From contig QZKQ01000033.1 of NCBI GenBank assembly GCA_003599535.1, forward strand, positions 48,837 to 112,836: a DNA stretch of 64,000 bases, read 5' to 3'. Origin of the DNA: Candidatus Zixiibacteriota bacterium. Lineage in GTDB: Bacteria; Electryoneota; B3-LCP. The notes beneath the pieces are model-generated. The model saw only the letters and a list, made by a program, of their open reading frames with translations. It was not told the DNA's origin and ran no database searches. Shown here one piece after another: positions 4,577 to 53,273 of the stretch. Numbering within the stretch: position 1 is the stretch's first letter; every line of letters starts with the position of its first letter. Both the position numbers and the translations under genes were made by a program.

Positions 4577-4975
4577 CTTTCGCCTCGGGGGACTTGCCTT
4601 CTCCTCGCTTCAGAATCGCAGATTTTCGCTGACTTATCTGATTATGCAGATAACGTTGCCGCCAGGATTGAAGCGGGAATTCTTGCGCCGCTCCCGAAAA
4701 GAAGGAGGCGAAGTTATCTTGTGCAGATTGGTTAAGAGGTTAGAGTAGCGATTCCTGGCGGCGATGCTCTTTTGTCAGAATCACGGATTAAACGGTAGTA
4801 ACGGATTAAACGGATATGGTTCGACCCCGCTGGGTCGTGATGGAGGAGAGAGCCTTGTCTCCACCCTTGGGGGTGGCTACCCATGTTAATCCCCTTCGGG
4901 GATGGAATCTTCTGGCTCCTGGCTCCTGACTCCTGTTCTTCTGCCTTTTGACTCCCGAATTTTGGATTCTTTACC
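4577..4975 (-). repeat. modular hairpin-rich intergenic mosaic, copy A (inverted orientation)
   Basis: The reverse complement carries the same module order as copies C/D/G. Modules: heptamer tract CAGGAGTCAGGAGCCAGGAGCCAGAAG (4909-4950), CCCCGAAGGGG hairpin, AATCCGT repeats ending ..GTGATTCTGAC (4775-4789), GCCGCCAGGA/TCCTGGCGGC stem (4658-4762), and a second ATCTGCGATTCTGA-like end (4610-4623). Confidence 0.8.
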
Positions 4976-6996: not shown

Positions 6997-7038
6997 CGCC
7001 TCTCGCATCTCGGATCTCGCCTCTCGGATCGCGCATCT
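6997..7038 (+). repeat. heptanucleotide-periodic tract (CGNNTCT)x6
   Basis: cgcctct cgcatct cggatct cgcctct cggatcg cgcatct. A related tract lies at about 29400-29470. Confidence 0.75.
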
Positions 7039-14115: not shown

Positions 14116-14298
14116 AAAACCCCGACTGTTTCGTCAAGTCTTAGCCGCTGAGATTAGAGTCTGACCGGGAAGTGGTGAACGAAAATAAGCCTTCCTCGAC
14201 GGCGGCGTGACCTGACGCGGGGAAAAACCCTGCAAACAACGGAAAGTTAAGCATCAGTAAAATACGGGGGCGAGGCGAGGTATGTCTCGCCCTCTTGC

Positions 14299-14320
14299 GC
14301 ACCCGAATAAATTCGGGTGC
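14299..14320. repeat. 22-nt palindrome GCACCCGAAT-AA-ATTCGGGTGC
   Basis: 10-bp arms, 2-nt centre. Identical copy at 37389-37410. Near-identical copies at 23403-23424, 37499-37520 and 28601-28621. Confidence 0.9.
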
Positions 14321-14436
14321 TCCACGGTAGCAGGAAGTCGCTGAAAGCGACTGCCGAATGGCCAACGGTGACCCGGCGGCAATTAACAGATCAAAGGACT
14401 GCTCCTGCGTCTCTGCGTCTCTGCGAGAAACAAATC

Positions 14437-16575: not shown

Positions 16576-17523
16576 ATGCCAAATTCATACGACGACATCA
16601 AAAAATTCGGGCAGGAGTTGATCCAGGCCCGGGAGCAACGAGGGATGTCCCTGGAGCAGATTTCGGACATCACCAAGGTGCACGAACGCTACCTCCGGGC
16701 CATGGAAGAGGGCCACTGGGATCTGCTCCCCCGGCCCTACATGGAATCCTTCCTGCACGCTTATGCCGAAGCCGTGGGGATGAACATCCCCAAGGTGATG
16801 CAGGAGTTCCATGACCTGATGCCGGGCGAGACCCGTCCTCCGGGCCGGGAACGCCTGGAGCCGGAGACGCCGGAAGAGGCCGCGGCGGACCGGCCGCCTC
16901 ACCGTCGGAGCCGGACCTGGTATATCCTGGGCGGCCTGGTGGTGCTGATCGTGGCCGCGGCCCTCATCGCCTACTTCGCCTGGAAGCCGGACCTGCAAAC
17001 ACTGCCGGTGCACCAGGTGCAGGGCGGGCGGATGATCGCGCCGACGGACACCCTGCAGCCCTTCCATCCCGACAGTGCGGCGCGAGCTGATTCCCTGCTG
17101 CCGGATACCCTCCGGCCCGACACCACCGTCATTGACACCGGGGCCACCCTGCAGGTGCCGGCCGACCCGAGGCTGTCGAATATTGCCGGCATGAACCTGG
17201 TGGCCCGGGCCTTCCAGCCCTGCTGGTTGCGCGCCACGCTGGACAATGCCGAGGTCCAGGAAGTCCTGCTGCAGGCCGGCGACAGCATCGCCTGGAAGGC
17301 CTCCGACGAGGTGATGATGGTCATCGGCAACGCCGGCGGCGTGCACCTGGAAATGGACGGGGAAGACTTGGGCGTCCTGGGGCCGGAAGGCAAGGTCGTC
17401 ACCGTGGTCATCACCCCCGACGGCATACAATCCCAGAGAATGGGCAAGGAAAAACTGACTCCCCCCATGGGTCCGGAATCCCTTCCGGATACCACCCGGG
17501 TCAACCAGGCCTCCAATACGTGA
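16576..17523 (+). CDS. rodZ: RodZ-like cytoskeleton protein (HTH + TM + DUF4115-like domain)
   Basis: N-terminal Cro/C1-type HTH (GQELIQAREQRGMSLEQISDITKV), single TM (WYILGGLVVLIVAAALIAYF) and a beta-rich C-terminus. GTGA overlap with ispG reproduces the known rodZ-ispG synteny. Confidence 0.75.
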   Translation: MPNSYDDIKKFGQELIQAREQRGMSLEQISDITKVHERYLRAMEEGHWDLLPRPYMESFLHAYAEAVGMNIPKVMQEFHDLMPGETRPPGRERLEPETPEEAAADRPPHRRSRTWYILGGLVVLIVAAALIAYFAWKPDLQTLPVHQVQGGRMIAPTDTLQPFHPDSAARADSLLPDTLRPDTTVIDTGATLQVPADPRLSNIAGMNLVARAFQPCWLRATLDNAEVQEVLLQAGDSIAWKASDEVMMVIGNAGGVHLEMDGEDLGVLGPEGKVVTVVITPDGIQSQRMGKEKLTPPMGPESLPDTTRVNQASNT

Positions 17524-18581
17524 TCCTGAGAAAACCGACCCGCCGTGTAGAGATCCGGGGGCTGGGGCTGGGCGGCTTCGAGCCGGTCCGGCTGCAGTCC
17601 ATGACCTGCACGGCGACCACAGATATCCCCGCCACCCTGGACCAGATCCGCCGCCTCGAAGCAGCCGGCTGCGAACTGGTGCGCCTGGCCATTCCCGACC
17701 ATGAGGCGGCCGCCGCCTTCGCTCAAATTCGCCGCCAGACCGACCTGCCCCTGGTGGCCGACATCCACTTCGATTACCGCCTGGCCCTGGAAGCGCTCCG
17801 GGCCGGCGCCGACAAGATCCGCCTGAATCCGGGCAACATCGGCGGGGAAGAGCGCGCCCTGACCGTGGCCCGCGAAGCCGCCGCCCGGGGCGTACCGATC
17901 CGCATCGGGGTCAATTCCGGGTCGGTGGAGAAGGACCTGCTGGCCAAGTACGGCGAACCGACTCCGCAGGCCCTGGTGGAATCGGCTCTGCGCCACGTGG
18001 ACCTGCTGTCCGCCGTGCCGGACCTCCAGCTTGTGCTCTCTCTGAAAGCCTCCGACGTGCTCACCACCATCGAAGCCTACCGCGCCGTTTCCGCGCAGAC
18101 CGACCTCCCCCTGCACCTGGGCGTAACCGAAGCCGGCACCCCCTTCACCGGGGCCATCCGCTCGGCGGTGGGCATCGGCACCCTGCTGGCGGAAGGCCTC
18201 GGCGACACCCTGCGCGTGTCCCTGACCGGCGACGTGGTCGAAGAGATCAAAGTGGGGTGGGAAATCCTGCGCTCGCTGGGGCTGCGCCGCCGCGGCGTGG
18301 AGCTGATCAGTTGCCCCACCTGCGGCCGCACCGAAGTGGACCTGGTGGGCATCGCCGTGCGGGTGGAAAAGGCGCTGGAGGACATCCAGCAGCCGCTGCG
18401 GGTGGCGGTGATGGGCTGCGCCGTTAACGGCCCGGGGGAAGCCCGCGGCGCCGACGTGGGGGTGGCCTGCGGCAAGGGCAAGGGGTTGATCTTCGTGCGG
18501 GGGGAGACCGTCCGAGCCGTCCCTGAAGAGCGCATCGTGGAAGAGCTGGTGGCGGAGGTGAGGAAATTTCTGGAGGGGTAA
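17520..18581 (+). CDS. ispG: 4-hydroxy-3-methylbut-2-en-1-yl diphosphate synthase
   Basis: Full-length GcpE/IspG (..RLQSMT..IRLNPGNIG..CPTCGR..VMGCAVNGPGE..). GTG start. Confidence 0.95.
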   Translation: MILRKPTRRVEIRGLGLGGFEPVRLQSMTCTATTDIPATLDQIRRLEAAGCELVRLAIPDHEAAAAFAQIRRQTDLPLVADIHFDYRLALEALRAGADKIRLNPGNIGGEERALTVAREAAARGVPIRIGVNSGSVEKDLLAKYGEPTPQALVESALRHVDLLSAVPDLQLVLSLKASDVLTTIEAYRAVSAQTDLPLHLGVTEAGTPFTGAIRSAVGIGTLLAEGLGDTLRVSLTGDVVEEIKVGWEILRSLGLRRRGVELISCPTCGRTEVDLVGIAVRVEKALEDIQQPLRVAVMGCAVNGPGEARGADVGVACGKGKGLIFVRGETVRAVPEERIVEELVAEVRKFLEG

Positions 18582-19154
18582 ATATTCACCACAGAGACAC
18601 GGAGAATAGAATCCAGAAGCCAGAATACAGGAGTCAGGAGCCAGAAGCTAGGAGAATCCGAGGGTGGAATGGGTGTTCCTGCCTGACGGAGGGCCGATGC
18701 CTCAGTGGCGCAAGCGTCCCCGCTTGCGGTTATCTGCGGCCAGCCACGAAGTGGTCACTGCGTGACAGAAACGCCGGCCTTACTGATCTAATCTTTGAGG
18801 GCATTGCATTGGGATGGCCATCTGCCGGCGGACGGATTGTGGCCACATGAATCCCCGCGTAGGGGCGGGGCTTAGCTTACCCCTTCGGGGACCCCGTCCG
18901 CGACTCCCCAGGAGTCGAATAATAGTAACATCGGGCGCCAGCCCGGGGTGGAGGCGACCTCGTCAATCCTCCCGACTCTGCCACGCAGTCCTGGGCGAGA
19001 CTCGTCCCGCGCCATAACACCAATACGACCACAATCCTCGGTTGACGAAAAGCCATCCATATACGATGAGCTCAACCCGATTCCCCACCGGGCTGTAACC
19101 TTTGTGAGAATGACAAACAGAGCCAGCAGCCAACAGCCAGCAGCCAGGAGCCAT
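18582..19154 (+). repeat. modular hairpin-rich intergenic mosaic, copy B
   Basis: Starts 1 nt after the ispG stop with ATTCACCACAGAGACACGG plus the heptamer tract 18589-18658. Also carries the GGCCATC..GATTGTGGCC module, the CGCAAGCG-TCCC-CGCTTGCG hairpin (18709-18728, also at 41494-41513), GTAGGGGCGGGGC words, and ends in the (AGCCARC)n tract 19121-19152. Confidence 0.75.
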
Positions 19155-19580
19155 ATGCAAGCACTTCAACACTCCGACGGCTACCTGATCCGTCTGGAAC
19201 GCGGCGAAGAGGTCACCGCCACGCTGACCGCTTTCCTGGAAGAGAAGGGCATCCACGCCGGGACCGTCATGGGCCTGGGCGGCATCGGCGACGCCGAACT
19301 GGGCTTCTACGACCTGCCCAACAAGACCTACCTGCGCCGCCAGGTCCCCGGCAACCTGGAACTGGTGCACTACTCCGGCAACATCACCCTGGTGGACGGC
19401 AAACCCTTCATCCACGCCCACGCAGTGGTATCCGGGGCGGACTACCAGGCGCTCTCCGGGCACTTCTTCAGCGCCAACGTCGTCATCACCGGCGAATTCA
19501 TCCTGCGACCTGCGCAGTGGGAAGTATCCCGCACGCTGGACGAATTCACCGGCCTGAAACTGATGGATCTCCCGAAGTGA
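19155..19580 (+). CDS. PPC (DUF296) domain protein, putative DNA-binding
   Basis: ..LELVHYSGNITLVDGKPFIHAHAVVSGADYQALSGHFFSANVVITGEFIL.. fits the PPC/DUF296 pattern. Start ATG 19155; ATG 19110 would translate the heptamer tract. Confidence 0.65.
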   Translation: MQALQHSDGYLIRLERGEEVTATLTAFLEEKGIHAGTVMGLGGIGDAELGFYDLPNKTYLRRQVPGNLELVHYSGNITLVDGKPFIHAHAVVSGADYQALSGHFFSANVVITGEFILRPAQWEVSRTLDEFTGLKLMDLPK

Positions 19581-20293
19581 ACTTCCCCACCTCCCGCCAG
19601 ACCGGCCGGGGCGACTTCTACGTGGACCCCCGCCCCCTGGCCGACCCGCCCGCCCGGGTGACCATTTCCGTGGCCGGCAACATCGGGTCGGGCAAGACCA
19701 CGCTGACCCAGCGCATCGGCGAGCTGCTGACCTTCAAGGCCTTCCTGGAACCGGTGGCCGCCAATCCTTACCTGGAAGATTTTTATCTCGAACCGCGCCG
19801 CTGGAGCTTTCCCCTGCAGGTGGTCTTCCTGTCGCAGAAGCTGAAGCTGATGCAGGAACTGCAGGCCAGCCCCCACCACCGCGTGCTGGACCGCACCCTG
19901 CAGGAGGACGCCGAGATCTTCGCCGCCACCCAGTTTCAGGCCGGGTACATGGACGAGCGCGACTGGCAAGCGTACTGGGATCTCTACCAGGCCGTGGAAC
20001 CGTCCATCCTGCTGCCTGATTTGGTGCTCTACCTGCAGGCGGACGTGGATTTCCTGCTTTACCGCATCCGCCGGCGCGAACGTGCGGCGGAAAAACCCCT
20101 CGCCCAGGACTACCTGGAACGGCTGAACCAGGCCTACGACCGCTGGATCGAATCCATAGCCGGTCGCACCCGGGTGCTGAAAATCCGGGCGCTGGATTAC
20201 GAGAGCGGCCCCGACTGGAAGCGGCTGGACTTCCTGGTGCGGGATATCGAACGGATGCTGGCGCGGACGATCCCGTTCCATTTCGGAAAGTAA
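19577..20293 (+). CDS. deoxynucleoside kinase
   Basis: P-loop VAGNIGSGKTTL followed by ..FLEPVAANPYLEDFY..WSFPLQVVFL.. typical of dNK/dCK/dGK. GTG 19577 overlaps the upstream stop (GTGA). GTG 19622 is an alternative. Confidence 0.82.
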   Translation: MNFPTSRQTGRGDFYVDPRPLADPPARVTISVAGNIGSGKTTLTQRIGELLTFKAFLEPVAANPYLEDFYLEPRRWSFPLQVVFLSQKLKLMQELQASPHHRVLDRTLQEDAEIFAATQFQAGYMDERDWQAYWDLYQAVEPSILLPDLVLYLQADVDFLLYRIRRRERAAEKPLAQDYLERLNQAYDRWIESIAGRTRVLKIRALDYESGPDWKRLDFLVRDIERMLARTIPFHFGK

Positions 20294-20730
20294 AATTCAC
20301 CGCAAAGACGCAGAGAACGCAGAGAAAATAGGATCCAGAAGCCGGCAGTCAGAAGAATAGGAGTCAGGAGTCAGGAGTCCGGAGATTCGGACGGCCATCC
20401 GTCAGCCGACGGATCGTGGCCCACACCCCGCAGGGGTGGTCCTTTAGTAGCCGTAGGTTTCAACCTACGGAGAAGGGGAATCCCATACCTCCTTTTCTAC
20501 AACCCTGAAGGGGTTGACCATAATCCGTTCAATCCGTTCCATCTGTTTCATCTGCGATTCTGACGTGGGGCCGCCAGGAATCGCTTCGCTTTCCCTAAGG
20601 GACCACTGCGTGGCAATCCTGGCGGTAACGAGGAATATTTCTCTGTAAGCCGTAGAGCACCCGCTTCAGCGGGTAGCATGATAGTAGCCCAGGAATTCAT
20701 TCCTGGGTGGGTTGCCAACCGCCACCTCCC
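20294..20730 (+). repeat. modular hairpin-rich intergenic mosaic, copy C (most complete)
   Basis: Module order: heptamer tract 20294-20385; GGCCATCCGTCAGCCGACGGATCGTGGCC; CACCCCGCAGGGGTG; CCGTAGGTTTCAACCTACGG; CCCTGAAGGGG; AATCCGT repeats ending ATCTGCGATTCTGAC (20550-20564); GCCGCCAGGA..TCCTGGCGG stem (20570-20625); ACCCGC-TTCA-GCGGGT; CCCAGGAAT-TC-ATTCCTGGG (20688-20707). Confidence 0.85.
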
Positions 20731-21912
20731 ATGACCGCTTCCACCCGCAAAACTCTGAATATCGCCCTGCTGGTCGTTCTGGCCGGATTCCTGGTGCACT
20801 ACAGCCTCTTCTCCATGCGGGAATACGCCGACTTCAAGCCGCTGTACCGGTCCGGGGAGCGGTTCCTCTGGGGGCGGGACCTGTACAACTTCGCCGACGG
20901 CCATTTTCTGTTCAAGTATGCCCCCTTCGCCGGAGCCATGTTCGCGCCGCTGGCGGCGCTGCCCTGGGCGTTGGCGTCGGTCATCTGGGTGACCGGCGCG
21001 TGGGCGCTGCTGGGAGTTACCTACGTGCAATCCCGCCGCTGGATCATGGGCCGCGAAACGCTGCCGCTGTGGGTGGGGCTGCTGGTGTTCCTGGGAGTGT
21101 CCAAGTTCACCTTGGCGGAAGTGCGGCTGGGGCAGGTGAACTATCCCCTGCTGTTCTTCGCGCTGGCGGCCATCATCAGCCTGGGGAAATCCTGGGAAGG
21201 CTGGGGGGGCGCCCTGCTGGCGGTGGCGACGCTTTTCAAGCCTCCCCTGGCGCTGCTGCTGGTAGTGGCCCTGTGGCGCCGCCGTCCCAAGTTCGTCCTG
21301 GGCTTTGCCGTGGGGTTGACGGCCGGACTTTTGCTTCCGATCCTGCGTTATGGCTGGATTGGTACTCTGGACCTGTACCGGGGCTGGTGGGAGGTGATGT
21401 GGGTGTCCTCGCCGGGGCAGATGGAAAGCGAAGTCAACCAGTCGCTGCCCGGAGCCCTGACGCGCTGGCTGGTGCATAACCCCTATGGATCGTCCTTTGC
21501 CACCCTGCCGCCGGAGGCGCCCATGATCATCACCGGGATCATTTTCGCGCTCTACCTGGCGCTGGCCTGGTGGATGGAACTGCGCTCGCGCACCAACCCG
21601 GAATTGGCCCCCGTGGCGCCGGTGCTGCTGCTGACCGGCACGGTGCTGTTCAATCCCCTGGGCTGGGTGCAGAACTACATCTTTCTGGCGCCGGCCCTGA
21701 TCCTGGCTTTTCGCTACGTCTTGCTGGAACGGGGGCGCGGCCGGACGCGGGTGGCGCTGGTGGCGCTGTTCTTCCTGGCGGCGGTGCTGCCCAACTACGA
21801 GATGATGGGCCGGCACCTGCACAATCACTACCTGGCGCAGTCATGGATTTTCCTGGGGGTGGCGGCGCTGATGGCCGCGCTCGTGGTTCCTTTACGTTAT
21901 CGCCATGCATGA
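20731..21912 (+). CDS. GT87/DUF2029-like polyprenol-dependent glycosyltransferase (membrane)
   Basis: About 11 TM segments. The N-terminal region ..DFKPLYRSGERFLWGRDLYNFADGHFLFKYAPFAGAMFAPL.. resembles DUF2029 mannosyltransferase-like proteins. Start ATG 20731. Confidence 0.65.
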   Translation: MTASTRKTLNIALLVVLAGFLVHYSLFSMREYADFKPLYRSGERFLWGRDLYNFADGHFLFKYAPFAGAMFAPLAALPWALASVIWVTGAWALLGVTYVQSRRWIMGRETLPLWVGLLVFLGVSKFTLAEVRLGQVNYPLLFFALAAIISLGKSWEGWGGALLAVATLFKPPLALLLVVALWRRRPKFVLGFAVGLTAGLLLPILRYGWIGTLDLYRGWWEVMWVSSPGQMESEVNQSLPGALTRWLVHNPYGSSFATLPPEAPMIITGIIFALYLALAWWMELRSRTNPELAPVAPVLLLTGTVLFNPLGWVQNYIFLAPALILAFRYVLLERGRGRTRVALVALFFLAAVLPNYEMMGRHLHNHYLAQSWIFLGVAALMAALVVPLRYRHA

Positions 21913-22207: not shown

Positions 22208-22256
22208 GGCTCTCGGCTGTCGGCTCTCGGCTCTCGGCTCTCGGCTATTAGCTCCT
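22208..22256 (+). repeat. (GGCTCTC)n heptamer tract, left inverted arm of the four-helix-bundle cassette
   Basis: ggctctc ggctgtc ggctctc ggctctc ggctctc ggctatt agctcct. Reverse-complementary to 22701-22731. Confidence 0.85.
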
Positions 22257-22305
22257 GGATACTGATAATTAATGCAGACATCAAATAATATCTTCGGAGG
22301 ATACA

Positions 22306-22695
22306 ATGGGCGATTATCGAAAGCTCGAAGTATGGCAATTGAGCCATGCTCTGGTGTTGGATATTTATAAAGTCACCTCTTCATATCCCAATCATGAAAT
22401 GTTTGGCTTGACCAGTCAAACTCGACGCGCCGCCATCTCGATTGCTGCGAATATTGTCGAAGGATGCGGCCGGGGGCGTGATGGCGAAATGTCCAGGTTT
22501 CTGATTATTTCTCTGGGGTCAGCCACCGAATTGGAATATCATCTCCTGGTGGCAAAGGATGTAGGTTATCTTCCCAACACGGAATATGATCGCCTGTCTG
22601 AATGCTTGAGCCGCATACTGCGCATGTTGAACACGTTTACGCAACGCGTAAGGAATAGCTTTGAAGCATCTAACAAAAAGATTGCAGCACGGTAA
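22306..22695 (+). CDS. four-helix-bundle protein (23S rRNA intervening-sequence protein family)
   Basis: MGDYRKLEVWQLSHALVLDIYKVTSSYPNHEMFGLTSQTRRAAISIAANIVEG.. matches the family signature. GC about 42% on a sampled line, against about 65% in flanking genes. Confidence 0.9.
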   Translation: MGDYRKLEVWQLSHALVLDIYKVTSSYPNHEMFGLTSQTRRAAISIAANIVEGCGRGRDGEMSRFLIISLGSATELEYHLLVAKDVGYLPNTEYDRLSECLSRILRMLNTFTQRVRNSFEASNKKIAAR

Positions 22696-22700
22696 CCGAT

Positions 22701-22731
22701 AGCTGAGAGCCGACAGCCGAGAGCCGAGAGC
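22701..22731 (+). repeat. (AGCCGAG)n heptamer tract, right inverted arm of the four-helix-bundle cassette
   Basis: agctgag agccgac agccgag agccgag agc. Pairs with 22208-22256 with about 3 mismatches in 28 nt. Confidence 0.85.
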
Positions 22732-22809: not shown

Positions 22810-23295
22810 ATGAAGCGATATGAAGCCCCGCGCAAGGAATTGATCGAAGGCGTGGCGGTCAAGGATCTGAAGATCATCCCTGACGAGCGCGGCCGGCTGA
22901 TGGAAATCCTGCGCTCGGACGACCCCCTGTTCGTCAAGTTCGGCCAGGTGTACATGACCACCAACTACCCCGGCGTAGTCAAGGCCTGGCACTACCACAA
23001 GCAGCAGGTGGACCACGTGGCCTGCGTCAAGGGGATGATCAAGCTGGTCATGTTCGACGACCGCGAAGGCAGCCCCACCCGGGGGATCCTCAACGAATTC
23101 TTCCTGGGCGAGCATAACCCCAAGCTGGTGCGCATCCCTTCGGGGGTGTGGCACGGCTGGAAGGGGGTCAGCGAGACCGAGGCGCTGATCGTCAACACCA
23201 CCACCGAGCTGTACGACCCGGCCAATCCGGACGAATACCGGCTCCCCTTCGACACGGACAAGATCCCTTACGACTGGGCGATACGGATGGGGTGA
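22810..23295 (+). CDS. RmlC-like cupin (dTDP-4-dehydrorhamnose 3,5-epimerase-related sugar epimerase)
   Basis: ..IIPDERGRLMEILRSDD..GQVYMTTNYPGVVKAWHYHKQQVDHVACVKG.. is the small epimerase-like cupin pattern. Confidence 0.75.
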   Translation: MKRYEAPRKELIEGVAVKDLKIIPDERGRLMEILRSDDPLFVKFGQVYMTTNYPGVVKAWHYHKQQVDHVACVKGMIKLVMFDDREGSPTRGILNEFFLGEHNPKLVRIPSGVWHGWKGVSETEALIVNTTTELYDPANPDEYRLPFDTDKIPYDWAIRMG

Positions 23296-23424
23296 CCCCG
23301 GAATAAATTCCGGGGCTCTCCCGTAAAACCAAGTCACTGAAGTGACTGGCGATGTTTCGAAATCACGGCAGTCTCTTTAGAGACTTTCAATCCTAAAAGA
23401 GAGCACCCGAATTCATTCGGGTGC
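23296..23424 (+). repeat. about 130-nt four-hairpin composite element (copy J) upstream of gcvPB
   Basis: CCCCGGAAT-AA-ATTCCGGGG (23296-23315), AGTCAC-TGAA-GTGACT, AGTCTCT-TT-AGAGACT (23370-23385), GCACCCGAAT-TC-ATTCGGGTGC (23403-23424). Collinear with 37389-37520. Confidence 0.85.
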
Positions 23425-23514
23425 CAAGACCGGCGATCATCAACACTTGAAACCATCTCTGACCAGTTTCCGTTTAATATCAACCCGCATTTCCCCATAA
23501 ACCTTCGATGACCC

Positions 23515-24969: not shown

Positions 24970-25009
24970 CTTCTCCAGCCTGACATTGGATTACTTGGCA
25001 GCACCATCA

Positions 25010-25041
25010 CGGCGGGGGAAGCGATTCCCCCGCCGGCGTTT
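25010..25041 (+). terminator. possible rho-independent terminator after gcvPB
   Basis: CGGCGGGGGAA-gcga-TTCCCCCGCCG (11-bp stem) followed by GCGTTTGG. The T-tract is weak. Confidence 0.4.
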
Positions 25042-25442
25042 GGGGCCGGGATGGCAGAACCGGAAGTACTGCACATAAGTATAAGAGTAGTCAGGAGCCG
25101 GGAGTCAGGAGCCAGAAGTCTCGGAGGCATAGCACCCCTGGAGAACGTAACCTGTCCTCTCCTCTTTTCCCGAACGACATCCGCGAAATCTGTCAGATCT
25201 GAGCCAATCTGCGATTCAGAAAAGAGTAAAATTTCCGTGGAATCCGTGTGATCCGCTCGATCCGTGATTCTGACCATTTCCTGACCGTGAGATTGCTTCG
25301 GCCCGCCCTTTGGTGGTCTATTCTGACGGATGATGACAACCTCCAGGTCACAGACTCGTTCAGGCTTTATCTCCGGCGGGCCTCGCAATGACACTGCGAT
25401 TCGGGCGGAGTCAAGCCCCCCTACGCGAGCAGTCACCAGCGA

Positions 25443-25529
25443 GTAGGTTGGGTTAGCGAAGCGTAACCCAACAATTTGTTAAAGTGACCGCGGTGTTGGG
25501 TTACGCCCTGGCGGGCTAACCCAACCTAC
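25443..25529. repeat. 87-nt two-tier perfect hairpin
   Basis: Outer stem GTAGGTTGGGTTAGC/GCTAACCCAACCTAC (15 bp). Inner stem GTAACCCAACA/TGTTGGGTTAC (11 bp). 5/10-nt internal loop containing GCGAAGC. 20-nt apical loop. Confidence 0.9.
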
Positions 25530-25569
25530 CCAGCCAACAGCCAACAGCCAATAGCCAGCAGCCAATCCC

Positions 25570-28509: not shown

Positions 28510-28569
28510 TCTGAAGCCCCCTATTCCGAACCCTGCCGCGCAGTGGTCTCTGAAGAAGTGTTGGGCTAC

Positions 28570-28621
28570 AGTGGTTTTAACCACTTGATTGTGCAAGAGA
28601 GCACCCGAATTTATTCGGTTG
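28570..28621 (+). repeat. short hairpin composite (copy L) upstream of the epimerase gene
   Basis: AGTGGTT-TT-AACCACT (28570-28585) then AGAGAGCACCCGAAT-TT-ATTCGGTTG (28601-28621), a degenerate member of the 22-nt palindrome family. Confidence 0.75.
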
Positions 28622-28641
28622 TCAAATCGCGGAGGTCCTGA

Positions 28642-29245: not shown

Positions 29246-29638
29246 TCGTTGGTCGTTAGTAGGGGCGGCCCGGCGTGGCCGCCTCTTCTCTGTCGGTAGG
29301 ATAGGCGCTTGTCCGTCTCCCGACGGATTCCTGCCGGTCAGTGCCATGGCCCCGCCCCTACGCGTGTTTTTTTCCAGCACCAGGCACTGCGCATCAAGAC
29401 ACTCGTACCTCGCATCTGTCTTCTTTCATTTCGTCTCTCGGATCTAATTTCTCGCGTCCCGGATCCCGCTTCGACCCTTCCGGAACCCCGCCGTCCCCCG
29501 TGAAGTACTCTGCTAAAGCGCCCATTTTTACCTTGCTTTTGGCCTTCGCCGGGCGTATCTTTATTCTGACGGCCTCGCGCGTTGAACCGCTCGCCACAAA
29601 CCGCAGTCTCCCGCATACCATGACAGCCCTCAAAACCC

Positions 29639-36172: not shown

Positions 36173-36598
36173 GCAAGAATCCAGAAGCCAGAATACAGGA
36201 GCCAGGAGGTCCGGAGGGTGGGATAGGCATTCTTGCCTGTCGGAGGGCAATCCGTCTCCTGACGGATCGTGGCCAACACCCCGAAGGGGTGATCTTTTTG
36301 TAGCCGTAGGTTTCAACCTACGGAGAGGATCAGCCTCCTCCCCTTCTCGACCCCGTAGGGGTCGAACCATGTAATCCGCGTAACCTGCTAAATCGTTGAA
36401 AATCTGCGATTCTGACGGGGAGAGGAAGCGACCCCCGCCGCCAGGAATCGCCACTTAAGGGCGGGCTTAAGTCCCACTTCGCTCCAATCCTGGCGGCAAC
36501 GTGAAGCACCCGGCACACTCTGGATCCCATGGTTCGCTGGGAGGACATCGCCGAGAACCGAGAGCCGAGAGCCAACAGCCAAGCGCCAACAGCCATAC
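36173..36598 (+). repeat. modular hairpin-rich intergenic mosaic, copy D
   Basis: Same module order as copy C: heptamers AATCCAGAAGCCAGAATACAGGAGCCAGGAG, GATCGTGGCC module, CACCCCGAAGGGGTG, CCGTAGGTTTCAACCTACGG, GACCCCGTAGGGGTC, ATCTGCGATTCTGAC (36402-36416), GCCGCCAGGA/TCCTGGCGGC (36437-36497), (AGCCRAS)n 36556-36594. Confidence 0.85.
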
Positions 36599-37360
36599 AT
36601 GACCACCCTGCAACTGCAAACCCATATCGTCTACGGTCCGGTACGATCCCGGCGCCTGGGGAAATCCCTGGGCGTCAACCTGAGCCCCATTCCCTACAAG
36701 CTGTGCCCGTATAACTGCGTCTACTGCCAGTACGGCTGGACCCGGGTGCTATCCACCGAAGCGGAACCTTACCTCGACGACTTTCCCCGCGTGGACGAGC
36801 TGTCCCGAGCTCTGGAAGAATTCCCCGCATCCCTGGACGACCTGGACCACATCACCTTCTCGGGCAACGGGGAAGCCACGCTGCACCCCGACTTCAACCG
36901 GGCTGTGGACCTCGTCACGGACTTCCGCGACCGCCGCGCCCCGCGCGCCCGGACGGCCATCCTGTCCAATGCCGCCCTGGTGGACCGGCCGGAGGTGCGC
37001 CATGCCCTGATGCGGCTCGACCGCCGCATCATGAAGCTGGACGCCGGCGACGAAACCACCTGGAAGCGCCTCAACCGCGCACCGGCCCGTATCACCTTTC
37101 CCGCCCTGGTGGAAGGCCTGCAAGCGCTGAAAGATTACGAGATTCAGGCCCTCTTCCTGGACGGTCCCTTCAGCAACAGCACGCCCCCGGCGGTGGAAGC
37201 CTGGGTCCGGCTGGCGGCGGAACTGAAGCCGCTGCGGGCGCAGATCTACACCCTGGACCGAGTTCCCGCCGACGCCACGCTCCTGCCGGTGTCCCCCCAG
37301 CGGCTGCTGGAAATCCGCGACTTGGCCCGGGCGGCGGGGTTGGAAGTAGAGGTGTACTGA
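36599..37360 (+). CDS. radical SAM protein (function unknown)
   Basis: CPYNCVYCQYG CxxxCxxC cluster near the N-terminus. About 250-aa single-domain enzyme. Confidence 0.75.
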   Translation: MTTLQLQTHIVYGPVRSRRLGKSLGVNLSPIPYKLCPYNCVYCQYGWTRVLSTEAEPYLDDFPRVDELSRALEEFPASLDDLDHITFSGNGEATLHPDFNRAVDLVTDFRDRRAPRARTAILSNAALVDRPEVRHALMRLDRRIMKLDAGDETTWKRLNRAPARITFPALVEGLQALKDYEIQALFLDGPFSNSTPPAVEAWVRLAAELKPLRAQIYTLDRVPADATLLPVSPQRLLEIRDLARAAGLEVEVY

Positions 37361-37388
37361 AGCTGGGCAGAATTCAGCGTCCGCCGTC

Positions 37389-37520
37389 GCACCCGAATAA
37401 ATTCGGGTGCTCTCTGAAAGCCAAGTAATTGAAACCACTAAAGCCAGTGGTCTTGAATCACTATATTTCAGTCTCTTTAGAGACTTTATTCCTATGGAGC
37501 ACTCGAATTTATTCGGGTGT
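37389..37520 (+). repeat. about 130-nt four-hairpin composite element (copy K) upstream of ltaE
   Basis: GCACCCGAAT-AA-ATTCGGGTGC (37389-37410), CCACT-AAAGCC-AGTGG, AGTCTCT-TT-AGAGACT (37470-37485), GCACTCGAAT-TT-ATTCGGGTGT (37499-37520). Collinear with 23296-23424. Confidence 0.85.
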
Positions 37521-37538
37521 CATCACCGGACCCATGCC

Positions 37539-38573: not shown

Positions 38574-38852
38574 GATTAGCCACAGATTGCACAGATAAAA
38601 GCTATTTCTCGCAAAGACGCAAATACATCTCCACGCAAAGGGCGCAAAGAAGGGGTTAGGGGTCGGGGGGGATTAGAGGTTGGGAGATAGCGCGTAGAGG
38701 CGGGGCTTGCCCCCGCCCGGTTGGGGATCAGAGTGTAAGGCGGACTAAACGGCAGAGCACCAACCTCTCCCTGCCACTATCCTCGATCCGCCGCGCAGTC
38801 CGCCGGGTACTGGCGTAGGGTTGCGTAGAGGCCCGGAAATAGTTTTCCACCC
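38574..38852. repeat. intergenic mosaic, copy E (variant module set)
   Basis: Heptamer-like words CCACAGATTGCACAGATAAAAGC..CGCAAAGACGCAAAT..GGGGTTAGGGGTCGGGGGGG. GGCGGGGCTTGCCCCCGCC hairpin. GGCGGACT..AGTCCGCC stem (38739-38804), homologous in inverted orientation to 41400-41467. Confidence 0.7.
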
Positions 38853-39623
38853 ATGAATACCCAACAGAGCATCGCCTACACCCTGGGCGCCACCCCGGAA
38901 GTCATGCCCTACCTGGGGCGGCTCCTGGCGGACCTGCAGGCGCTGGGATCGTCTCCCAGCCTGATCGTGGATCTGCTCCGCCCCCTGGGCCTGCCCCCGG
39001 ACAGCCGCGTCCTGGACCTGGGGTGCGGCAAGGGCGCTGTGGCCCTGGAAATCGCCCAGAGGCTGGGCTTTCAGGTAGAGGGAGTGGACGGCTTCAGGCC
39101 GTTCATTCAGGCGGCGCGGCGGCGGGCCAAGCGGTTGAGGCTGTCCGGTCTCTGCCGGTTTGAATGCGCCGACCTGCGGGACGTGTTCCGCCGGCCGGAA
39201 ACATACGACGTGATCGTCCTGGCCGCCATCGGGCCGGTGCTGGGGGACATGGCGCAGACCGTGGGGACGCTGCGGCAGAGAGTGCGTCCCGGCGGGTACC
39301 TGGTGCTGGATGACGGCTTCCTGGATCCGGGCGAAGGCACCGTACCGGACAGCTACACGGCCTATCTTCCCTACCGGGAAACGGTAGCACAGATGACTTC
39401 CTTCGGCGACCGGGTGATCCACGAACGGATCTTTTCGCCGGACGAGATCCGCGCCACCAACGCCGCGATATACGCGAAAATCCGCCGCCGCGCCGCGAGC
39501 ATCATCCGCCGCCACCCGGCAGCGGCAGAGGCCATCCAGGAATACCTCCGCGGCCAGGAAGATGAGAACCTGGCCCTGGAAACCCGGGTGCGGTCGGCGC
39601 TGTGGGTGGTGAAAATAAAGTAA
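38853..39623 (+). CDS. class I SAM-dependent methyltransferase
   Basis: Motif I VLDLGCGKGAVALEIA, motif post-I ..GVD.., motif II ..YDVIVLAA... Confidence 0.8.
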   Translation: MNTQQSIAYTLGATPEVMPYLGRLLADLQALGSSPSLIVDLLRPLGLPPDSRVLDLGCGKGAVALEIAQRLGFQVEGVDGFRPFIQAARRRAKRLRLSGLCRFECADLRDVFRRPETYDVIVLAAIGPVLGDMAQTVGTLRQRVRPGGYLVLDDGFLDPGEGTVPDSYTAYLPYRETVAQMTSFGDRVIHERIFSPDEIRATNAAIYAKIRRRAASIIRRHPAAAEAIQEYLRGQEDENLALETRVRSALWVVKIK

Positions 39624-39935
39624 AGACCCTCACCTCCGTTTTAGCGTTGTCAGAATCGCAGATGGAACGGAGGGAACGGATGTTGGTCCACCCCTTCAGG
39701 GTGGCACAGGAGGGTGGGGTATCCTTCTCCGGGGGTTACCACGCAGTGGTCCCTTCGGGAAAACACCCCGGCTACTAAAAGACCACCCTTCCAGGGTGAA
39801 GGCCACGATCCTTCGGTAGACAGATGGCCTTCCCAATCTCCTGGCTCCTGACTCCTATTCTTGTGCCTTTTGTATTCTTTTCTTCGTTCATCTGTGTCCA
39901 TCTGTGTGATCTGTGGCTTCCCAACTCATCCCCTC
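39624..39935 (-). repeat. modular hairpin-rich intergenic mosaic, copy F (inverted); left arm of the inverted pair around the YhaM-like gene
   Basis: The reverse complement of 39649-39788 aligns with 41059-41200 with about 8 differences in 142 nt. Outer end GTCAGAATCGCAGAT (39649-39663). Heptamers CTCCTGGCTCCTGACTCCTATTCTTGTGCC face the gene. Confidence 0.88.
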
Positions 39936-39947
39936 ATGGAGCCTCCC

Positions 39948-40949
39948 ATGTCCTCCGCCCTCACCGACAAATTCCTTCGAGAGCTGGCCGAAAACGAGCG
40001 TTTCGCCGGGTTCGTGGTACTGCGCAGCATCCATGTGCGCCAGAAGAAGGATGGGTCCCCCTTCCTGACCCTCGAATTCGGCGACCGGTCGGGCCGCATG
40101 CCCGGCAAGCTGTGGGATCACGTGGAAGAGTACCGCAAGATCCTGGAACCGGGCAAGATCGTCAAGCTGCTGGGCAGCGTAACCACCTACCAGGATCAGA
40201 AGGAGATCCAGATCGAGCGGCTGCGGCTGACCACGCCCGAAGATCCCGTGGACCGTTCCCGCCTGATTGCCGTCAGCGAACGCCCGGTCGAGGAGATGCG
40301 CCGCCACCTGCGCCGGTTGATCGAAGCGGTGGTTCAGCCCGGGTTACGCTCCTTCCTGCGCCGCTTCTTTGACGACCCCGCCATCGCCGGCCCCTGGCTG
40401 GAAGCGCCCGCCGGAAAGCTCTGGCACCACTGCTACCTGGGCGGCCTGGCCGAACATTCCCTGAATATGGCGGAAATCCTGCTGAAGGTGGCGGAACTGT
40501 ACCCCCACGCGGATAAGGACCTGCTCATCGCCGGCGCCCTGCTGCACGACGTGGGCAAAATCGAGGAGCTGTCCTGGGACACGGACATTGACTACACCGA
40601 TCGCGGCCGGCTGGTGGGGCACATCGTTCTGGGGCAGGAAATCCTGCTGCGCCACCGCCAGGACGGCGAAATGCCGGAAGAGACCTGGAACTGCCTCCTG
40701 CACCTGCTGCTGGCCCACCAGGGCAACGGCGAACAGGGGTCGCCGGTGAAGCCGCAGACCCTGGAAGCCATCCTGCTGTACTACGCCGACGAAATGGATT
40801 CCAAGGCCAACGCCTTCAACCGCATCATCCAGCGCGCGCGGGAACAGGGCGACCGCTGGTCGGAATATATCAAGCTGATGGAACGCTTCCTGTACGCCGG
40901 ATCAAAGCCGCAGGAGGGGGGGGAGGTCAAGGAAGGGGATCTGTTTTAG
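39948..40949 (+). CDS. YhaM-like 3'-5' exoribonuclease (OB-fold + HD domain)
   Basis: N-terminal OB-fold (..VVLRSIHVRQKKDGSPFLTLEFGDRSGRMPGKLWD..) and HD domain (..LLHDVGKIEE.., ..LLAHQGNGE..). ATG 39948 has GGAG 6 nt upstream. ATG 39936 is an alternative. Confidence 0.8.
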   Translation: MSSALTDKFLRELAENERFAGFVVLRSIHVRQKKDGSPFLTLEFGDRSGRMPGKLWDHVEEYRKILEPGKIVKLLGSVTTYQDQKEIQIERLRLTTPEDPVDRSRLIAVSERPVEEMRRHLRRLIEAVVQPGLRSFLRRFFDDPAIAGPWLEAPAGKLWHHCYLGGLAEHSLNMAEILLKVAELYPHADKDLLIAGALLHDVGKIEELSWDTDIDYTDRGRLVGHIVLGQEILLRHRQDGEMPEETWNCLLHLLLAHQGNGEQGSPVKPQTLEAILLYYADEMDSKANAFNRIIQRAREQGDRWSEYIKLMERFLYAGSKPQEGGEVKEGDLF

Positions 40950-41608
40950 CCACGGAAATAGAATTCAGAAGCCAGAATTCAGAAGCCAGAAGAAGAATAC
41001 AGGAGCCAGGCGTCAGGAGCCAGGAGCCGGGAGTCAGGAGCCAGAATATCACCCCGCAGGGGTGGTCTTTTAGTAGCCGGGGCGTTTTCCCGAAGGGACC
41101 ACTGCGTGGTAACCCCCGGAGAACGGATTCCCCACCCTCCTGTGCCACCCTGAAGGGGTGGACCATAATCCCCTCCCTCCGTTCTATCTGCGATTCTGAC
41201 CATGAGATTGCTTCGGCCGCTGAAAAAACGCGGCCTCGCAATGACACTGCCGGGCGATGGGCGGAGATTGCTTCGGCCGCTGAAAACCGCGGGCCTCGCA
41301 ATGACACTGCCGGGCGATGGGCGGAGATTGCTTCGGCCGCTGAAAACCGCGGGCCTCGCAATGACACTGTTAGTTAAGCATCAAGCGTCAAGAACCCCCG
41401 GCGGACTGCGCGGCGGGTTAATGAATTGAGCGAAGGATGGGTTCGGCGCTCCGCCGCTTAGTCCGCCCTACAACACTCCCCACATGAAGGTGGCGCAAGC
41501 GTCCCCGCTTGCGATTGTTTCCACCGGCAGAGACGCCGGCGCTATCCTCTTTTACTTATTACTTATTACTTTATACTTCTTTTATCTCTGACTTCAAAGG
41601 AGCTTTTC
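40950..41608 (+). repeat. modular hairpin-rich intergenic mosaic, copy G; right arm of the inverted pair around the YhaM-like gene
   Basis: 12-unit heptamer tract 40961-41044; arm 41059-41200 ending ATCTGCGATTCTGAC; tandem 60-mers 41204-41369; GGCGGACT..AGTCCGCC stem 41400-41467; CGCAAGCG-TCCC-CGCTTGCG 41494-41513; TACTTAT-type heptamers 41550-41590. Confidence 0.88.
41204..41369 (+). repeat. tandem direct repeat, 60-nt unit x 2.8
   Basis: Units 41204-41263, 41264-41323 and 41324-41369 of GAGATTGCTTCGGCCGCTGAAAACCGCGGGCCTCGCAATGACACTGCCGGGCGATGGGCG. Units 2 and 3 are identical. Unit 1 differs in the AAAAAACGCGG loop. Each unit carries an ATTGC..GGCCGC/GCGGCC..GCAAT hairpin. Confidence 0.92.
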
Positions 41609-52502: not shown

Positions 52503-52618
52503 ACTTCTCTCGCTCGCCCCGTAACTTCCCCCACGAAAAAGCCCCTGAAGGCCCACCATCGCCGGGTGAGATCCGGAGGCCACGCCCGAAATCCGGGAAT
52601 TGCCTGCCTGTACGCGTG

Positions 52619-52671
52619 TGGGCCCAGCAGGATTCGAACCCGCGACCCACGGATTAAAAGTCCGTTGCTCT
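52619..52671 (-). tRNA. 3'-terminal fragment of tRNA-Lys(UUU); 5' acceptor strand and D-arm missing
   Basis: The reverse complement is AGAGCAACGGACTTTTAATCCGTGGGTCGCGGGTTCGAATCCTGCTGGGCCCA. It contains the anticodon arm ACGGA-CTTTTAA-TCCGT, the T-arm GCGGG-TTCGAAT-CCTGC, and the acceptor 3' strand plus discriminator A. Adjacent sequence has no GGGCCCA or GCTC D-stem. Confidence 0.75.
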
Positions 52672-52699
52672 TGTGCGGGAAAAGGGGCAAAATCGGGCG

Positions 52700-52721
52700 T
52701 TTTGCAGTAGTTTTGCAGTAG
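52700..52721 (+). repeat. tandem direct 11-mer TTTTGCAGTAG x2 next to the tRNA fragment
   Basis: ttttgcagtag ttttgcagtag begins 28 nt from the truncated end of the tRNA fragment. Candidate recombinase arm-type sites. Confidence 0.6.
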
Positions 52722-53273
52722 TCGCATGAAAACGGGCCGGACTTGCGTCCGCGTGAGTCCGGTCCGGCCGTTAACGCAACGGTCGCTGGGCCTGCCTGAG
52801 AAATCCCTTGCTCTTTGAAATAGGTTAGCTATCTACACTTTTTCGGCACTATCCTACGCGGGCCGTGCGCCAGGTAGGTATGGCAGCGTTGCGCCGGAAA
52901 ACCGGCAGCAAGCAACTGTGTTTTCGTGAAGGAAGCACTTTCCTGACGGGCGGCGCGGTCGGTGGATGCTGAGCTGGCTTCTCTCATTGAATCAGGCTTC
53001 CCTCGCCCACCTGCTGGGAGAGGTCAACACGTTCCCAGGCTTATAGAGCCTTCCCGACCAGAATGCGCTTGACGCTGCCCCGAAAATATTCTGTCGGGTA
53101 GGGGGGGGTATGTTTCTCCTGAAACCGAAATCCCGAATCCAAGGTGGGGGGCTTTGCCGCCGACGGGAGGTTTTAACTTCGCCCCCTCCCAGAAGCCGGT
53201 CAGGGACGGACTTCAGAATGCTGCCTCAATCAGGAGTGACAAGGGATAAAGATCCAGAAATTGAAGAAATTAC

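Follow-up and report, generated by a model that had tools for sequence, protein, structure and literature searches.

REP/BIME-like mosaic repeats and tandem tracts in the intergenic spacers of an LCP-89-type bacterial chromosome

RESULTS

Genes and long spacers of the region

The DNA considered here is a 64,000-nt stretch (hereafter, the window) of contig QZKQ01000033.1 (positions 48,837 to 112,836 of the forward strand, assembly GCA_003599535.1) from a Candidatus Zixiibacteriota bacterium, in which long intergenic spacers, including that at 20294-20730, are occupied by hairpin-rich repeated sequences. A first-pass annotation had described a single modular element, assembled from the same short modules in the same order, in eight spacers (4577-4975, 18582-19154, 20294-20730, 24970-25569, 36173-36598, 38574-38852, 39624-39935, and 40950-41608; below, a spacer is named by its first position). 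Our analysis favors, with a probability of roughly 70%, the view that these spacers hold noncoding, nonautonomous repeats of the kind represented by repetitive extragenic palindromes (REPs), bacterial interspersed mosaic elements (BIMEs), and neisserial intergenic mosaic elements (NIMEs), which colonized this LCP-89-type lineage after its split from the known relatives.

The window is chromosomal, has a G+C content of 63%, and carries housekeeping genes located mostly on the plus strand. Besides those listed in Table 1, they encode an aminotransferase, an ABC/FtsX transporter, SHMT, UbiA, RodZ, GcvP, a DinG-like helicase, a MiaB-like enzyme, a LapB-like protein, and a beta-eliminating lyase, and several window proteins have type-9-secretion C-terminal tails. 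The tight gene packing noted earlier is borne out by 4-nt gene overlaps. The eight spacers, all of which lie between co-directional genes of the plus strand, add up to 3,685 nt, in agreement with the earlier figure of about 3.7 kb, and the bounds given for spacer 18582 hold, as the PPC-type gene begins at 19155. No transposase, integrase, or reverse transcriptase family was found among the 40 window open reading frames (ORFs) scanned against Pfam, consistent with the earlier remark that the window has no gene for a REP-associated tyrosine transposase (RAYT/TnpA), an integrase, or a reverse transcriptase.

The repeats exceed chance expectation

The 15-mer ATCTGCGATTCTGAC has four exact copies in the window and eight matches at two or fewer mismatches, compared with 0.16 expected, and none of 100 shuffled sequences reaches eight (0/100). 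Likewise, ATCCGTCnnnnGACGGAT has six matches (0.25 expected), GCCGCCAGGAATCGC has four (0.43 expected), and GGGACCACTGCGTGG is present in three exact copies. When the 28 spacers (8.4 kb, 13% of the window) were compared with one another, 162 high-scoring segment pairs were obtained, against 24 from size-matched coding chunks. A repeat search recovered an 87-nt direct repeat of 89% identity (20387/36240) and inverted repeats of 75-88 nt and 84-95% identity, which connect 39649-39856 with 41049-41200 and with 20366-20453. Only part of any of the eight spacers, 20-69%, resembles another spacer. The motifs quoted in the first-pass annotation were all located within 1 nt of where they had been placed; the complemented variants of the 15-mer occupy 4609-4623 and 4774-4788 rather than 4610-4623 and 4775-4789.

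A colinear composite in four spacers

Module order was assessed by a MAFFT alignment and a fuzzy module map. One colinear composite of ~250-330 nt was observed in four spacers (20294, 36173, 40950, and, on the minus strand, 39624) and a partial one in spacer 4577, and so the claim of common modules in a common order stands for the first four and in part for the fifth, but not for spacers 18582, 24970, and 38574. From one end to the other, the composite consists of an optional CRCAGAGA-type tract; a (CAGGAGY)n heptamer tract; an optional GGATAGGCATTCTTGCCTGTC hairpin; GGCCATCCGTC-N4-GACGGATCGTGGCC (module 2); CACCCC-gna-GGGGTG followed by TCYTTTWGTAG (module 3); a GTAG-tagged slot between CCG and CGG that contains TAGGTTTCAACCTA or GGGYGTTTTCCCGAAGGGACCACTGCGTGGTAACCCC (module 4); C[A/G/C]ACCC-loop-GGG[T/C/G]G (module 5); a (AATCCGTTC)n nonamer tract with the 15-mer as its end; and an optional shell hairpin, GCCGCCAGGAATCGC...AATCCTGGCGGC (module 6). 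Period-9 arrays were found at 20522, 4783, and 25234, and the most fitting reading of the 15-mer is a degenerate terminus of the nonamer tract.

The copy in spacer 20294 (copy A) is full. It starts with the CRCAGAGA tract, the (CAGGAGY)n tract, GGCCATCCGTC..GACGGATCGTGGCC, and CACCCCgcaGGGGTG with TCCTTTAGTAG, continues with the GTAG-tagged CCGTAGGTTTCAACCTACGG, CAACCCtgaaGGGGTTG, the (AATCCGTTC)n tract, and ATCTGCGATTCTGAC, and ends with the shell hairpin GCCGCCAGGAATCGC...AATCCTGGCGG, which carries GGGACCACTGCGTGG inside its loop. Copies C and D form an inverted pair around the HD/YhaM-like gene, with their heptamer tracts on the side facing that gene, and are 87-95% identical, compared with ~75-89% for other pairs, which fits preferential local copying or gene conversion. 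Copy E, in spacer 4577, begins with a heptamer tract, two module-5-like hairpins, a nonamer tract, and a 15-mer variant, and closes with a module-6 shell of ~80 nt cargo and a second 15-mer variant. According to the module map, all copies are located within 4.6-41.6 kb of the window, and the remaining 42-64 kb holds none. The heptamer tract had been said to start 1-10 nt past the upstream stop codon; this is approximately true in spacers 36173 and 40950, but in 18582 and 20294 a CRCAGAGA-type tract precedes the heptamers and in 24970 they begin 116 nt past the stop codon.

The noncolinear spacers contain other combinations of modules (Table 1). From the composite, spacer 24970 has only the tracts and 15-mer variants, together with further modules; its segment 25091-25396 also holds one GAGATTGC...GCAATGAC shell with a cargo of ~70 nt. 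Spacer 18582 lacks modules 3, 5, and 6; its hairpins at 18607-18873 are module 8, one resembling module 4b, module 2, and GTAG-GGGCGGGG. None of the composite hairpins is present in spacer 38574. Elements of the 41400-41513 set recur at 38788-38804 (minus strand) and at 18707-18728. Tracts similar to the (CAGCCAR)n tract before the PPC gene also occur at 25531-25565 and 36550-36595.

Table 1. Coordinates of the repeat features and of the genes that adjoin them in the window
Feature	Position	Strand	Description
Composite copy A, full	20294-20626	+	
Composite copy B, full	36173-36497	+	Extra GGATAGGCATTCTTGCCTGTC hairpin; module-6 shell with a different inner hairpin
Composite copy C	40951-41200	+	Long heptamer tract; module-4b variant; ends at the 15-mer; lacks modules 2 and 6
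Composite copy D, inverted	39649-39925	-	Lacks module 6
Composite copy E, partial, inverted	4609-4971	-	Spacer 4577; lacks module 2, the module-3 tail, and module 4
Two GTAG-tagged hairpins	20652-20707	+	GTAG-AGCACCCGCttcaGCGGGT and GTAG-CCCAGGAATtcaTTCCTGGG
60-nt unit, 2.8 copies	41204-41369	+	Each with cosmopolitan shell GAGATTGCTTCG...CTCGCAATGAC and inner hairpin
Inverted pair and hairpin	41400-41513	+	GGCGGACTGCGCGGCGG / CCGCCGCTTAGTCCGCC, then hairpin GGCGCAAGCGTCCCCGCTTGCG
Part of spacer 24970-25569	25091-25396	+	Heptamer tract; nonamer tract between two 15-mer variants
REPIN-like inverted dimer of GTAG-tagged palindromes	25443-25529		GTAGGTTGGGTTAGCGAAGCGTAACCCAAC ... GTTGGGTTACGCC..GGCTAACCCAACCTAC, GTAG tags outermost
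Part of spacer 18582-19154	18607-18873	+	Heptamer tract and hairpins, noncomposite order
(CAGCCAR)n tract	19121-19153	+	Extends up to the PPC start codon
Spacer with CRCAGA/CGCAAAG tracts	38574-38852	+	Hairpin GTAG-A-GGCGGGGcttgCCCCCGCC; GGCGGACTGCGCGGCGG on the minus strand
IspG gene	17520-18581		
PPC-domain gene	19155-19580		
Deoxynucleoside kinase (dNK) gene	19517-20293		
GT87 gene	20731-21912		
Radical SAM gene	36599-37360		
Methyltransferase gene	38853-39623		
HD/YhaM-like gene	39948-40949		
M42 peptidase gene	41609-42658		

Hairpins, GTAG tags, and exchangeable cargo

Across the 8.4 kb of spacers, 50 perfect hairpins were counted whose stems have 6 bp or more (stems 6-12 bp, loops 3-12 nt). 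A 5' GTAG tag is carried by module 4a (20451 and 36304), by the module-4b shell (41075, and 39725-39775 on the minus strand), and by hairpins at 20688 (CCCAGGAATtcaTTCCTGGG), 38699 (GGCGGGGcttgCCCCCGCC), 29264 (GGCGGCC...GGCCGCC), 4861 (minus strand), and 25447 with its partner. GTAG directly 5' of hairpins was counted seven times against 1.33 expected, a five-fold excess (P = 4e-4, uncorrected) in which repeat copies are not independent observations. In addition to the dimer at 25443-25529, inverted pairs were found at 41400-41467, 23294/23402, and 37388/37498.

Three modules act as shells with exchangeable cargo. The sequence GGGACCACTGCGTGG occupies the module-4 slot at 41095 and 39739 and the module-6 loop at 20599, and module 6 encloses three different inner sequences. 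The cargo of module 6 and of the GAGATTGC shell ranges from 12 to 80 nt, and that of GAGATTGCTTCG...CTCGCAATGAC is ~20 nt in the repeat units at 41204-41369 and ~70 nt at 25289-25396. The first-pass annotation had recognized neither these shells nor the fact that the tracts are of the cyanobacterial short tandemly repeated repetitive (STRR) type, nor the cosmopolitan distribution of two modules, nor a second family resembling miniature inverted-repeat transposable elements (MITEs).

The predicted RNA fold of 20294-20730 is 5.4 standard deviations more stable than shuffled sequences (z = -5.4), and the z-scores of spacers 36173 and 40950 are -2.5 and -1.45; these weaker values indicate that the signal resides in local hairpins and not in a global fold. 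The module-5 stem varies in a compensatory way among copies (CAACCC/GGGTTG, CGACCC/GGGTCG, CCACCC/GGGTGG), and RNAalifold reports double changes in 7 of 26 consensus pairs, which, with five sequences, is suggestive only. Module 3, a 6-bp G+C stem followed by TCTTTT, has the pattern of an intrinsic terminator in three copies, while terminator-like sites as a whole are not in excess (9 vs. 6.5-7.4 in shuffles). The (CAGCCAR)n tracts reach three start codons, at one of which AGGAG is placed 6 nt before ATG. No Rfam family was found at the gathering threshold; a permissive search returned a single sub-threshold hairpin, GTAG-CCCAGGAATtcaTTCCTGGG, matching Acido-Lenti-1 (RF01687) on the minus strand at 20675-20707 with 26.3 bits against a gathering score of 37.

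Tandem tracts

Tandem Repeats Finder (TRF) placed arrays of period 7 at 12 or more spacer positions. When 20294-20730 was used as a query against a plasmid collection, the heptamer tract alone matched, with positions 32-91 of the query showing 80-81% agreement with (CAGGAGT)n tracts on two Nostoc plasmids. Tracts of (CAGCCAA)n are present on Thiothrix, Mycetohabitans, Streptomyces, and Aeromonas plasmids, and in Thiothrix they stand directly before ATG ~18 times. STRR heptamer tracts and small dispersed repeats have reportedly been described in cyanobacteria, in work attributed to Mazel in 1990 and to Elhai in 2008, and (CAACAGC)n is one base off the STRR3 unit, CAACAGT.

On the Thiothrix subterranea plasmid NZ_CP133216.1, a (CAGCCAA) tract of ~18 units (610-731) has CAGCC-ATG as its end and lies just before a gene for a site-specific DNA methyltransferase; 14 places of this kind occur on the plasmid, an arrangement that would suit phase variation. 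In the window, pyrimidine-rich short-period tracts, CTCGCATCT / CTCGGATCT, which are separate from the tract families of the composite, were observed at 6997-7038 and 29420-29470, each 300-450 nt ahead of a different radical-SAM gene.

Comparison with relatives

Four contigs are syntenic with the window (L004, GCA_040960625.1; L005, JGI 3300045276; L006, LCP-89 B3_LCP; L201, Logan ERR14790950), and a fifth related contig (L200, ENA ERZ27247916) has a GT87 homolog but is not syntenic. Judged by the HD protein, candidate division LCP-89 bacterium B3_LCP (65% identity) is the closest of the named relatives; among the unnamed ones, the best value is 75%. Gene order is kept in the syntenic relatives both in MiaB-LapA-LapB-PGPGW-SPOR-(HHH)-rSAM-lyase-(MT)-HD-M42 (rSAM, radical SAM; MT, methyltransferase) and in UbiA-Maf-RodZ-IspG-PPC-GT87-DUF6504-isomerase-GcvP-DinG-glyoxalase; the HD gene is itself syntenic and not cargo.

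In these relatives the orthologous spacers measure -4 to 248 nt, mostly <120 nt, compared with 133-659 nt in the window. For the window spacers of 279-659 nt, most orthologous ones have 2-116 nt and the longest ~250 nt. The spacer is 23 nt in relatives and 573 nt in the window between IspG and PPC, 36 and 437 nt between PPC (dNK in the window) and GT87, 88 and 600 nt between GcvP and DinG, 33-88 and 279 nt between the lyase and the next gene, 88 (L004 only) and 312 nt between MT and HD, 22-64 and 659 nt between HD and M42, and -4 and 133 nt between DinG and glyoxalase. The nearest relative, that with the 75% identical HD protein, has none of the long spacers in its syntenic stretch. The short orthologous spacers indicate that the long ones are gains in this lineage or else losses in all the others, in agreement with the earlier suggestion of retained or spreading DNA.

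Single modules recur in distant relatives although base composition differs greatly. The GGATAGGCATTCTTGCCTGTC hairpin of copy B is common to L006 (46.5% G+C), in which a 35-nt stretch containing GGATAGGCATTCTTGCCTGTC matches at 89% identity (E = 8e-7) and CATCCGTCGGCCGACGGAT is also found. L200 has a nonamer tract and a 13/15 variant of the 15-mer directly before a start codon, and L201 has a GTAG-GGGCGGT hairpin in its GcvP-DinG spacer.

The gene complement also differs at two places. The dNK gene is absent at the orthologous position in L201; the MT gene is absent from L005 and L006, and L004 has an unannotated 290-aa gene there. Both genes have a repeat-filled spacer on at least one side.

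Occurrence beyond the lineage

The composite-specific 20-mer GGGTGRTCYTTTWGTAGCCG gave 3 exact matches in GTDB species genomes and 10 in JGI metagenomes, all of them chance or coding matches, the main coding match being one conserved motif that we take to be acetyltransferase-like. The cosmopolitan modules are distributed differently. Among the matches listed, GAGATTGCTTCG-N10-40-CTCGCAATGAC has at least 153 instances in at least 120 IMG/VR loci with a locus G+C of 36-68%, often as arrays with variable inner hairpins. The palindrome GTAGGTTGGGTT-N6-16-AACCCAAC occurs in 63 IMG/VR loci (G+C 42-72%), 17 of which are inverted dimers with GTAG outermost, and the palindrome of the 25443-25529 dimer is the one that is often dimeric in IMG/VR contigs. 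Composite-specific hairpins are essentially absent from the 1.47 Mb of IMG/VR contigs matched by the cosmopolitan modules. A full-text search of the literature for the module sequences matched unrelated primers only.

In one IMG/VR contig (IMGVR_UViG_3300017987_000488), GTAGGTTGGGTT...AACCCAAC palindromes stand between apparent phage structural genes (portal, terminase, and capsid, from ORF reading), and REP-like hairpins thus appear to occupy a putative virus genome as well. In the two IMG/VR loci inspected, no transposase was evident beside the GTAGGTTGGGTT palindrome.

Other features of the window

A second MITE-like family of ~135 nt has two full copies (23294-23426 and 37388-37522) and two half copies (28560-28625 and 14298-14322). 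Its ends are the palindrome GCACCCGAATwwATTCGGGTGC and its inner hairpins are AGTCACTGAAGTGACT and AGTCTCTTTAGAGACT; the same layout, with compensated stems, is seen at 7900-8147 of L006. The lyase ORF is probably an overlong call in the 37407-37536 region (388 aa, vs. 328-345 aa in orthologs), and if it is shortened, the rSAM-lyase spacer becomes ~175 nt and contains the palindrome pair 37388/37498.

A 23S_rRNA_IVP (four-helix-bundle) gene at 22306-22695 lies in surroundings (22208-22731) whose G+C content is ~50% (window, 63%). On either side of it is a 39-nt heptamer tract, (GGCTCTC)5 and, inverted, (GAGAGCC)5; the two tracts are 87% complementary and could form a long stem. In L201, the orthologous spacer of 116 nt lacks this cassette, which looks inserted. 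A tRNA fragment (52627-52676, minus strand; Rfam 30.6 bits, model positions 10-63), in which ARAGORN finds no gene, is located at the start of a 956-nt noncoding stretch (52503-53458). This stretch lies inside a block (50-58 kb) of lower G+C content (51-55%) that encodes FG-GAP and beta-helix proteins with type-9-secretion tails, possibly the margin of an acquired island.

DISCUSSION

How the composite may have spread

The building blocks of the spacers are palindromes of 15-45 nt, some GTAG-tagged and some shells with an exchangeable loop hairpin, and tandem tracts of heptamers, (CAGGAGY)n and (CAGCCAA)n, or of nonamers, (AATCCGTTC)n, ending in ATCTGCGATTCTGAC. Under colonization by REP/BIME-type repeats, the composite (heptamer tract, five hairpins, nonamer tract, 15-mer) would have been copied as a ~250-330-nt unit in either orientation and preferentially nearby. 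The copying enzyme would have acted in trans, from a gene located elsewhere. The REP anatomy, together with the GTAG tags on several hairpins, leads us to propose a single-stranded-DNA HUH/Y1 transposase (RAYT-like or IS200/IS605-like) as the likeliest candidate, acting on hairpins extruded in single-stranded DNA. Tract lengths could then be altered by replication slippage, and modules could be swapped by recombination or gene conversion. After insertion, judging from sequence, the G+C-rich hairpins probably serve secondarily as terminators or protectors of mRNA 3' ends, and the AGGAG-rich tracts may act as Shine-Dalgarno-like sites.

Several observations weigh against this interpretation. The exact scans of the GTDB and JGI collections reveal no composite beyond 4.6-41.6 kb of the window, and no Y1 transposase or other mobility gene is present in the window or among the called genes of ~96 kb of relatives. 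No candidate ORF emerged when 66 aa translated from the element were searched in protein space. The composite has no clear terminal inverted repeat (the best is 14 nt at 79%), and no target duplication is visible at its borders. Furthermore, the GTAG enrichment is lost after correction for 256 tetramers, with repeat copies again nonindependent, and modules 2, 3, 5, and 6, that is, most composite hairpins, have no GTAG. Covariation is thin among only five copies, and the covariation term of RNAalifold is ~0.

Alternative explanations

The composite could instead be a functional structured RNA kept by selection in 3' or 5' untranslated regions, whether as a terminator or stabilizer, as a processed small RNA, or as a sponge whose CAGGAG motifs titrate ribosomes or a CsrA-like protein. 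The stable fold of 20294-20730, compensatory changes in two stems, the terminator pattern of module 3 in three copies, the co-directional genes around all eight spacers, and the (CAGCCAR)n tracts abutting three start codons would all suit such a role, and CsrB-type RNAs have repeated CAGGAxG units. However, two of the five copies have the opposite orientation to the genes beside them, and a sense transcript of these would carry the complement. The other spacers fold far less convincingly (-2.5 and -1.45), no Rfam family reaches threshold, and terminator-like sites are no commoner than in shuffles. Copies also differ in module content, and the same operons exist in relatives with spacers that are mostly <120 nt. 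We therefore regard a dedicated RNA function of these sequences as distinctly unlikely. Binding-site arrays for IHF/HU-type proteins, gyrase, or a regulator, used in chromosome organization or co-regulation, seem less probable still, if conceivable for the tracts. The MTYCTGA tandem tracts of Geobacter metallireducens are annotated as putative global-regulator sites (PMC2700814), and in E. coli IHF, gyrase, and Pol I are bound by BIMEs (PMC2817692). Yet the genes flanking the repeats have no functional theme (IspG, dNK, GT87, GcvP, DinG, radical SAM, and M42 peptidase), the sites are missing at the same genes in relatives, and the copies vary too much in content to represent a defined operator.

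Restriction of all copies to 4.6-41.6 kb, the location of the two most similar copies in adjacent spacers, and the failure to find the composite in the public collections scanned could also be explained by local duplication and gene conversion within ~40 kb only, with no transposition and no genome-wide family. This would need to account for copies in at least seven separate spacers, among unrelated syntenic housekeeping genes and in both orientations, whose flanks are not co-duplicated, as well as for parts of the composite in distant relatives (the L200 nonamer tract with its 15-mer variant and the two L006 hairpins). It appears to us improbable, nearly to the same degree as the binding-site arrays. 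Integron attC sites, CRISPR, retrons, and riboswitches were considered and rejected, given the syntenic housekeeping flanks, the lack of a regular spacer-repeat array, the lack of a reverse transcriptase, and the lack of an Rfam match. An assembly artifact was likewise rejected, as a divergence of 5-25% separates the copies and the genes around them are ordered as in the relatives.

Significance

Colonization by REP/BIME-type repeats, the reading we prefer, extends mosaics of this type and STRR-type tracts to an uncultured candidate phylum (LCP-89) of the Fibrobacteres-Chlorobi-Bacteroidetes (FCB) group. Some 3-4 kb of a 64-kb housekeeping region would represent a recent gain of repeats in an otherwise compact genome, and the filled sites, together with the short orthologous spacers of relatives, provide a clean set for studying how such elements spread. 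In metagenome bins, sequences of this sort are mostly passed over or annotated wrongly as small ORFs, and in practice these repeats can interrupt assemblies and give rise to false gene calls. The more interesting point is perhaps the cosmopolitan shell-and-cargo mini-palindromes and the common heptamer units. A cosmopolitan, largely undescribed system of nested mini-palindromes, in which GAGATTGCTTCG...CTCGCAATGAC-type shells with exchangeable inner hairpins and STRR-type tracts move between hairpin loops across phyla and phages without a gene in cis and so build lineage-specific composites, the ~270-nt unit of the window being one local product, is a speculative extension that we think rather unlikely, if less so than an RNA role.

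Comparison with known systems

The likeness to BIME/REP clusters proposed in the first-pass annotation holds at the level of kind; strict membership is not supported. The largest REP superfamily has an unpaired terminal GTAG beside a 6-13-bp stem, and REPs form frequent inverted dimers, coexist as several families, include subfamilies with compensatory stem changes, lie between unidirectional genes, and are linked to RAYTs (Di Nocera et al., PMC3733652). The window has in common with GTAG REPs and with the REP doublets and transposases of the REPIN-RAYT system the extragenic palindromes of 20-45 nt, an apparent unpaired 5' GTAG on some of them, stems of 6-9 bp with short loops, inverted dimers, several families per genome, unidirectional-gene spacers, and subfamilies with compensatory stem changes (PMC3733652, PMC2817692, PMC3116915, PMC3333891), to which both orientations and mosaic clustering may be added. 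Unlike in those systems, GTAG is found on some modules only, at least 10 hairpin types coexist in 64 kb at low local copy number, and the unit is not a doublet but a fixed-order multihairpin of ~270 nt, with no RAYT seen in the window. As to an IS200/IS605 source, no insertion sequence lies within the window.

With the BIMEs of E. coli, neisserial NIMEs, and pneumococcal BOX elements (boxA-boxB-boxC), the composite has in common a limited set of short modules in a preferred order, some optional or repeated, together with strong folding, both orientations, and a position between or after genes. It differs in its unrelated sequences, in heptamer and nonamer tracts as borders, and in shells with exchangeable inner hairpins. 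It is not a BIME in the strict sense, being a series of different hairpins in fixed order instead of alternating copies of one unit (the Y and Z palindromic units are lacking), with most composite hairpins devoid of GTAG; neither is it a classical MITE with terminal inverted repeats, in view of the weak inverted repeat and the absence of visible border duplication described above. Mosaic arrays are also mentioned for the neisserial intergenic mosaic elements (dRS3/RS) (PMC3733652). The Rfam motif Acido-Lenti-1 (RF01687) has a CC...GG hairpin followed by CUA...UA, which is the GTAG-tagged layout on the other strand, but only one window hairpin matches it, below the gathering score.

The heptamer and nonamer tracts belong to a known class, and the composite looks like a local version of REP/BIME-type DNA, seen, in the collections scanned, only in this window. 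As in cyanobacterial STRRs, the tandem heptamers are intergenic and some form inverted pairs, the (CAGGAGT)n unit is that of the Nostoc plasmids, and, as among cyanobacterial small repeats, very small hairpin repeats are nested in others. The host here is, by contrast, a 63% G+C bacterium of an FCB-type candidate phylum, and the tracts are joined to a fixed series of hairpins. Intergenic heptamer repeats are overrepresented in Nostoc and Xanthomonas (reviewed by Rehm et al., PMC4692102). The multicopy intergenic sequences of G. metallireducens similarly comprise many small, unrelated families missing from a sister species, including paired tracts of five MTYCTGA heptanucleotides, the complement of TCAGRAK and hence of the TCAGGAG unit of the window; there, they were read as regulator-binding sites, and a multihairpin composite was not described (PMC2700814). 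The shell-and-cargo hairpins and the heptamer units common to Nostoc, Geobacter, and LCP-89 point to a shared mechanism.

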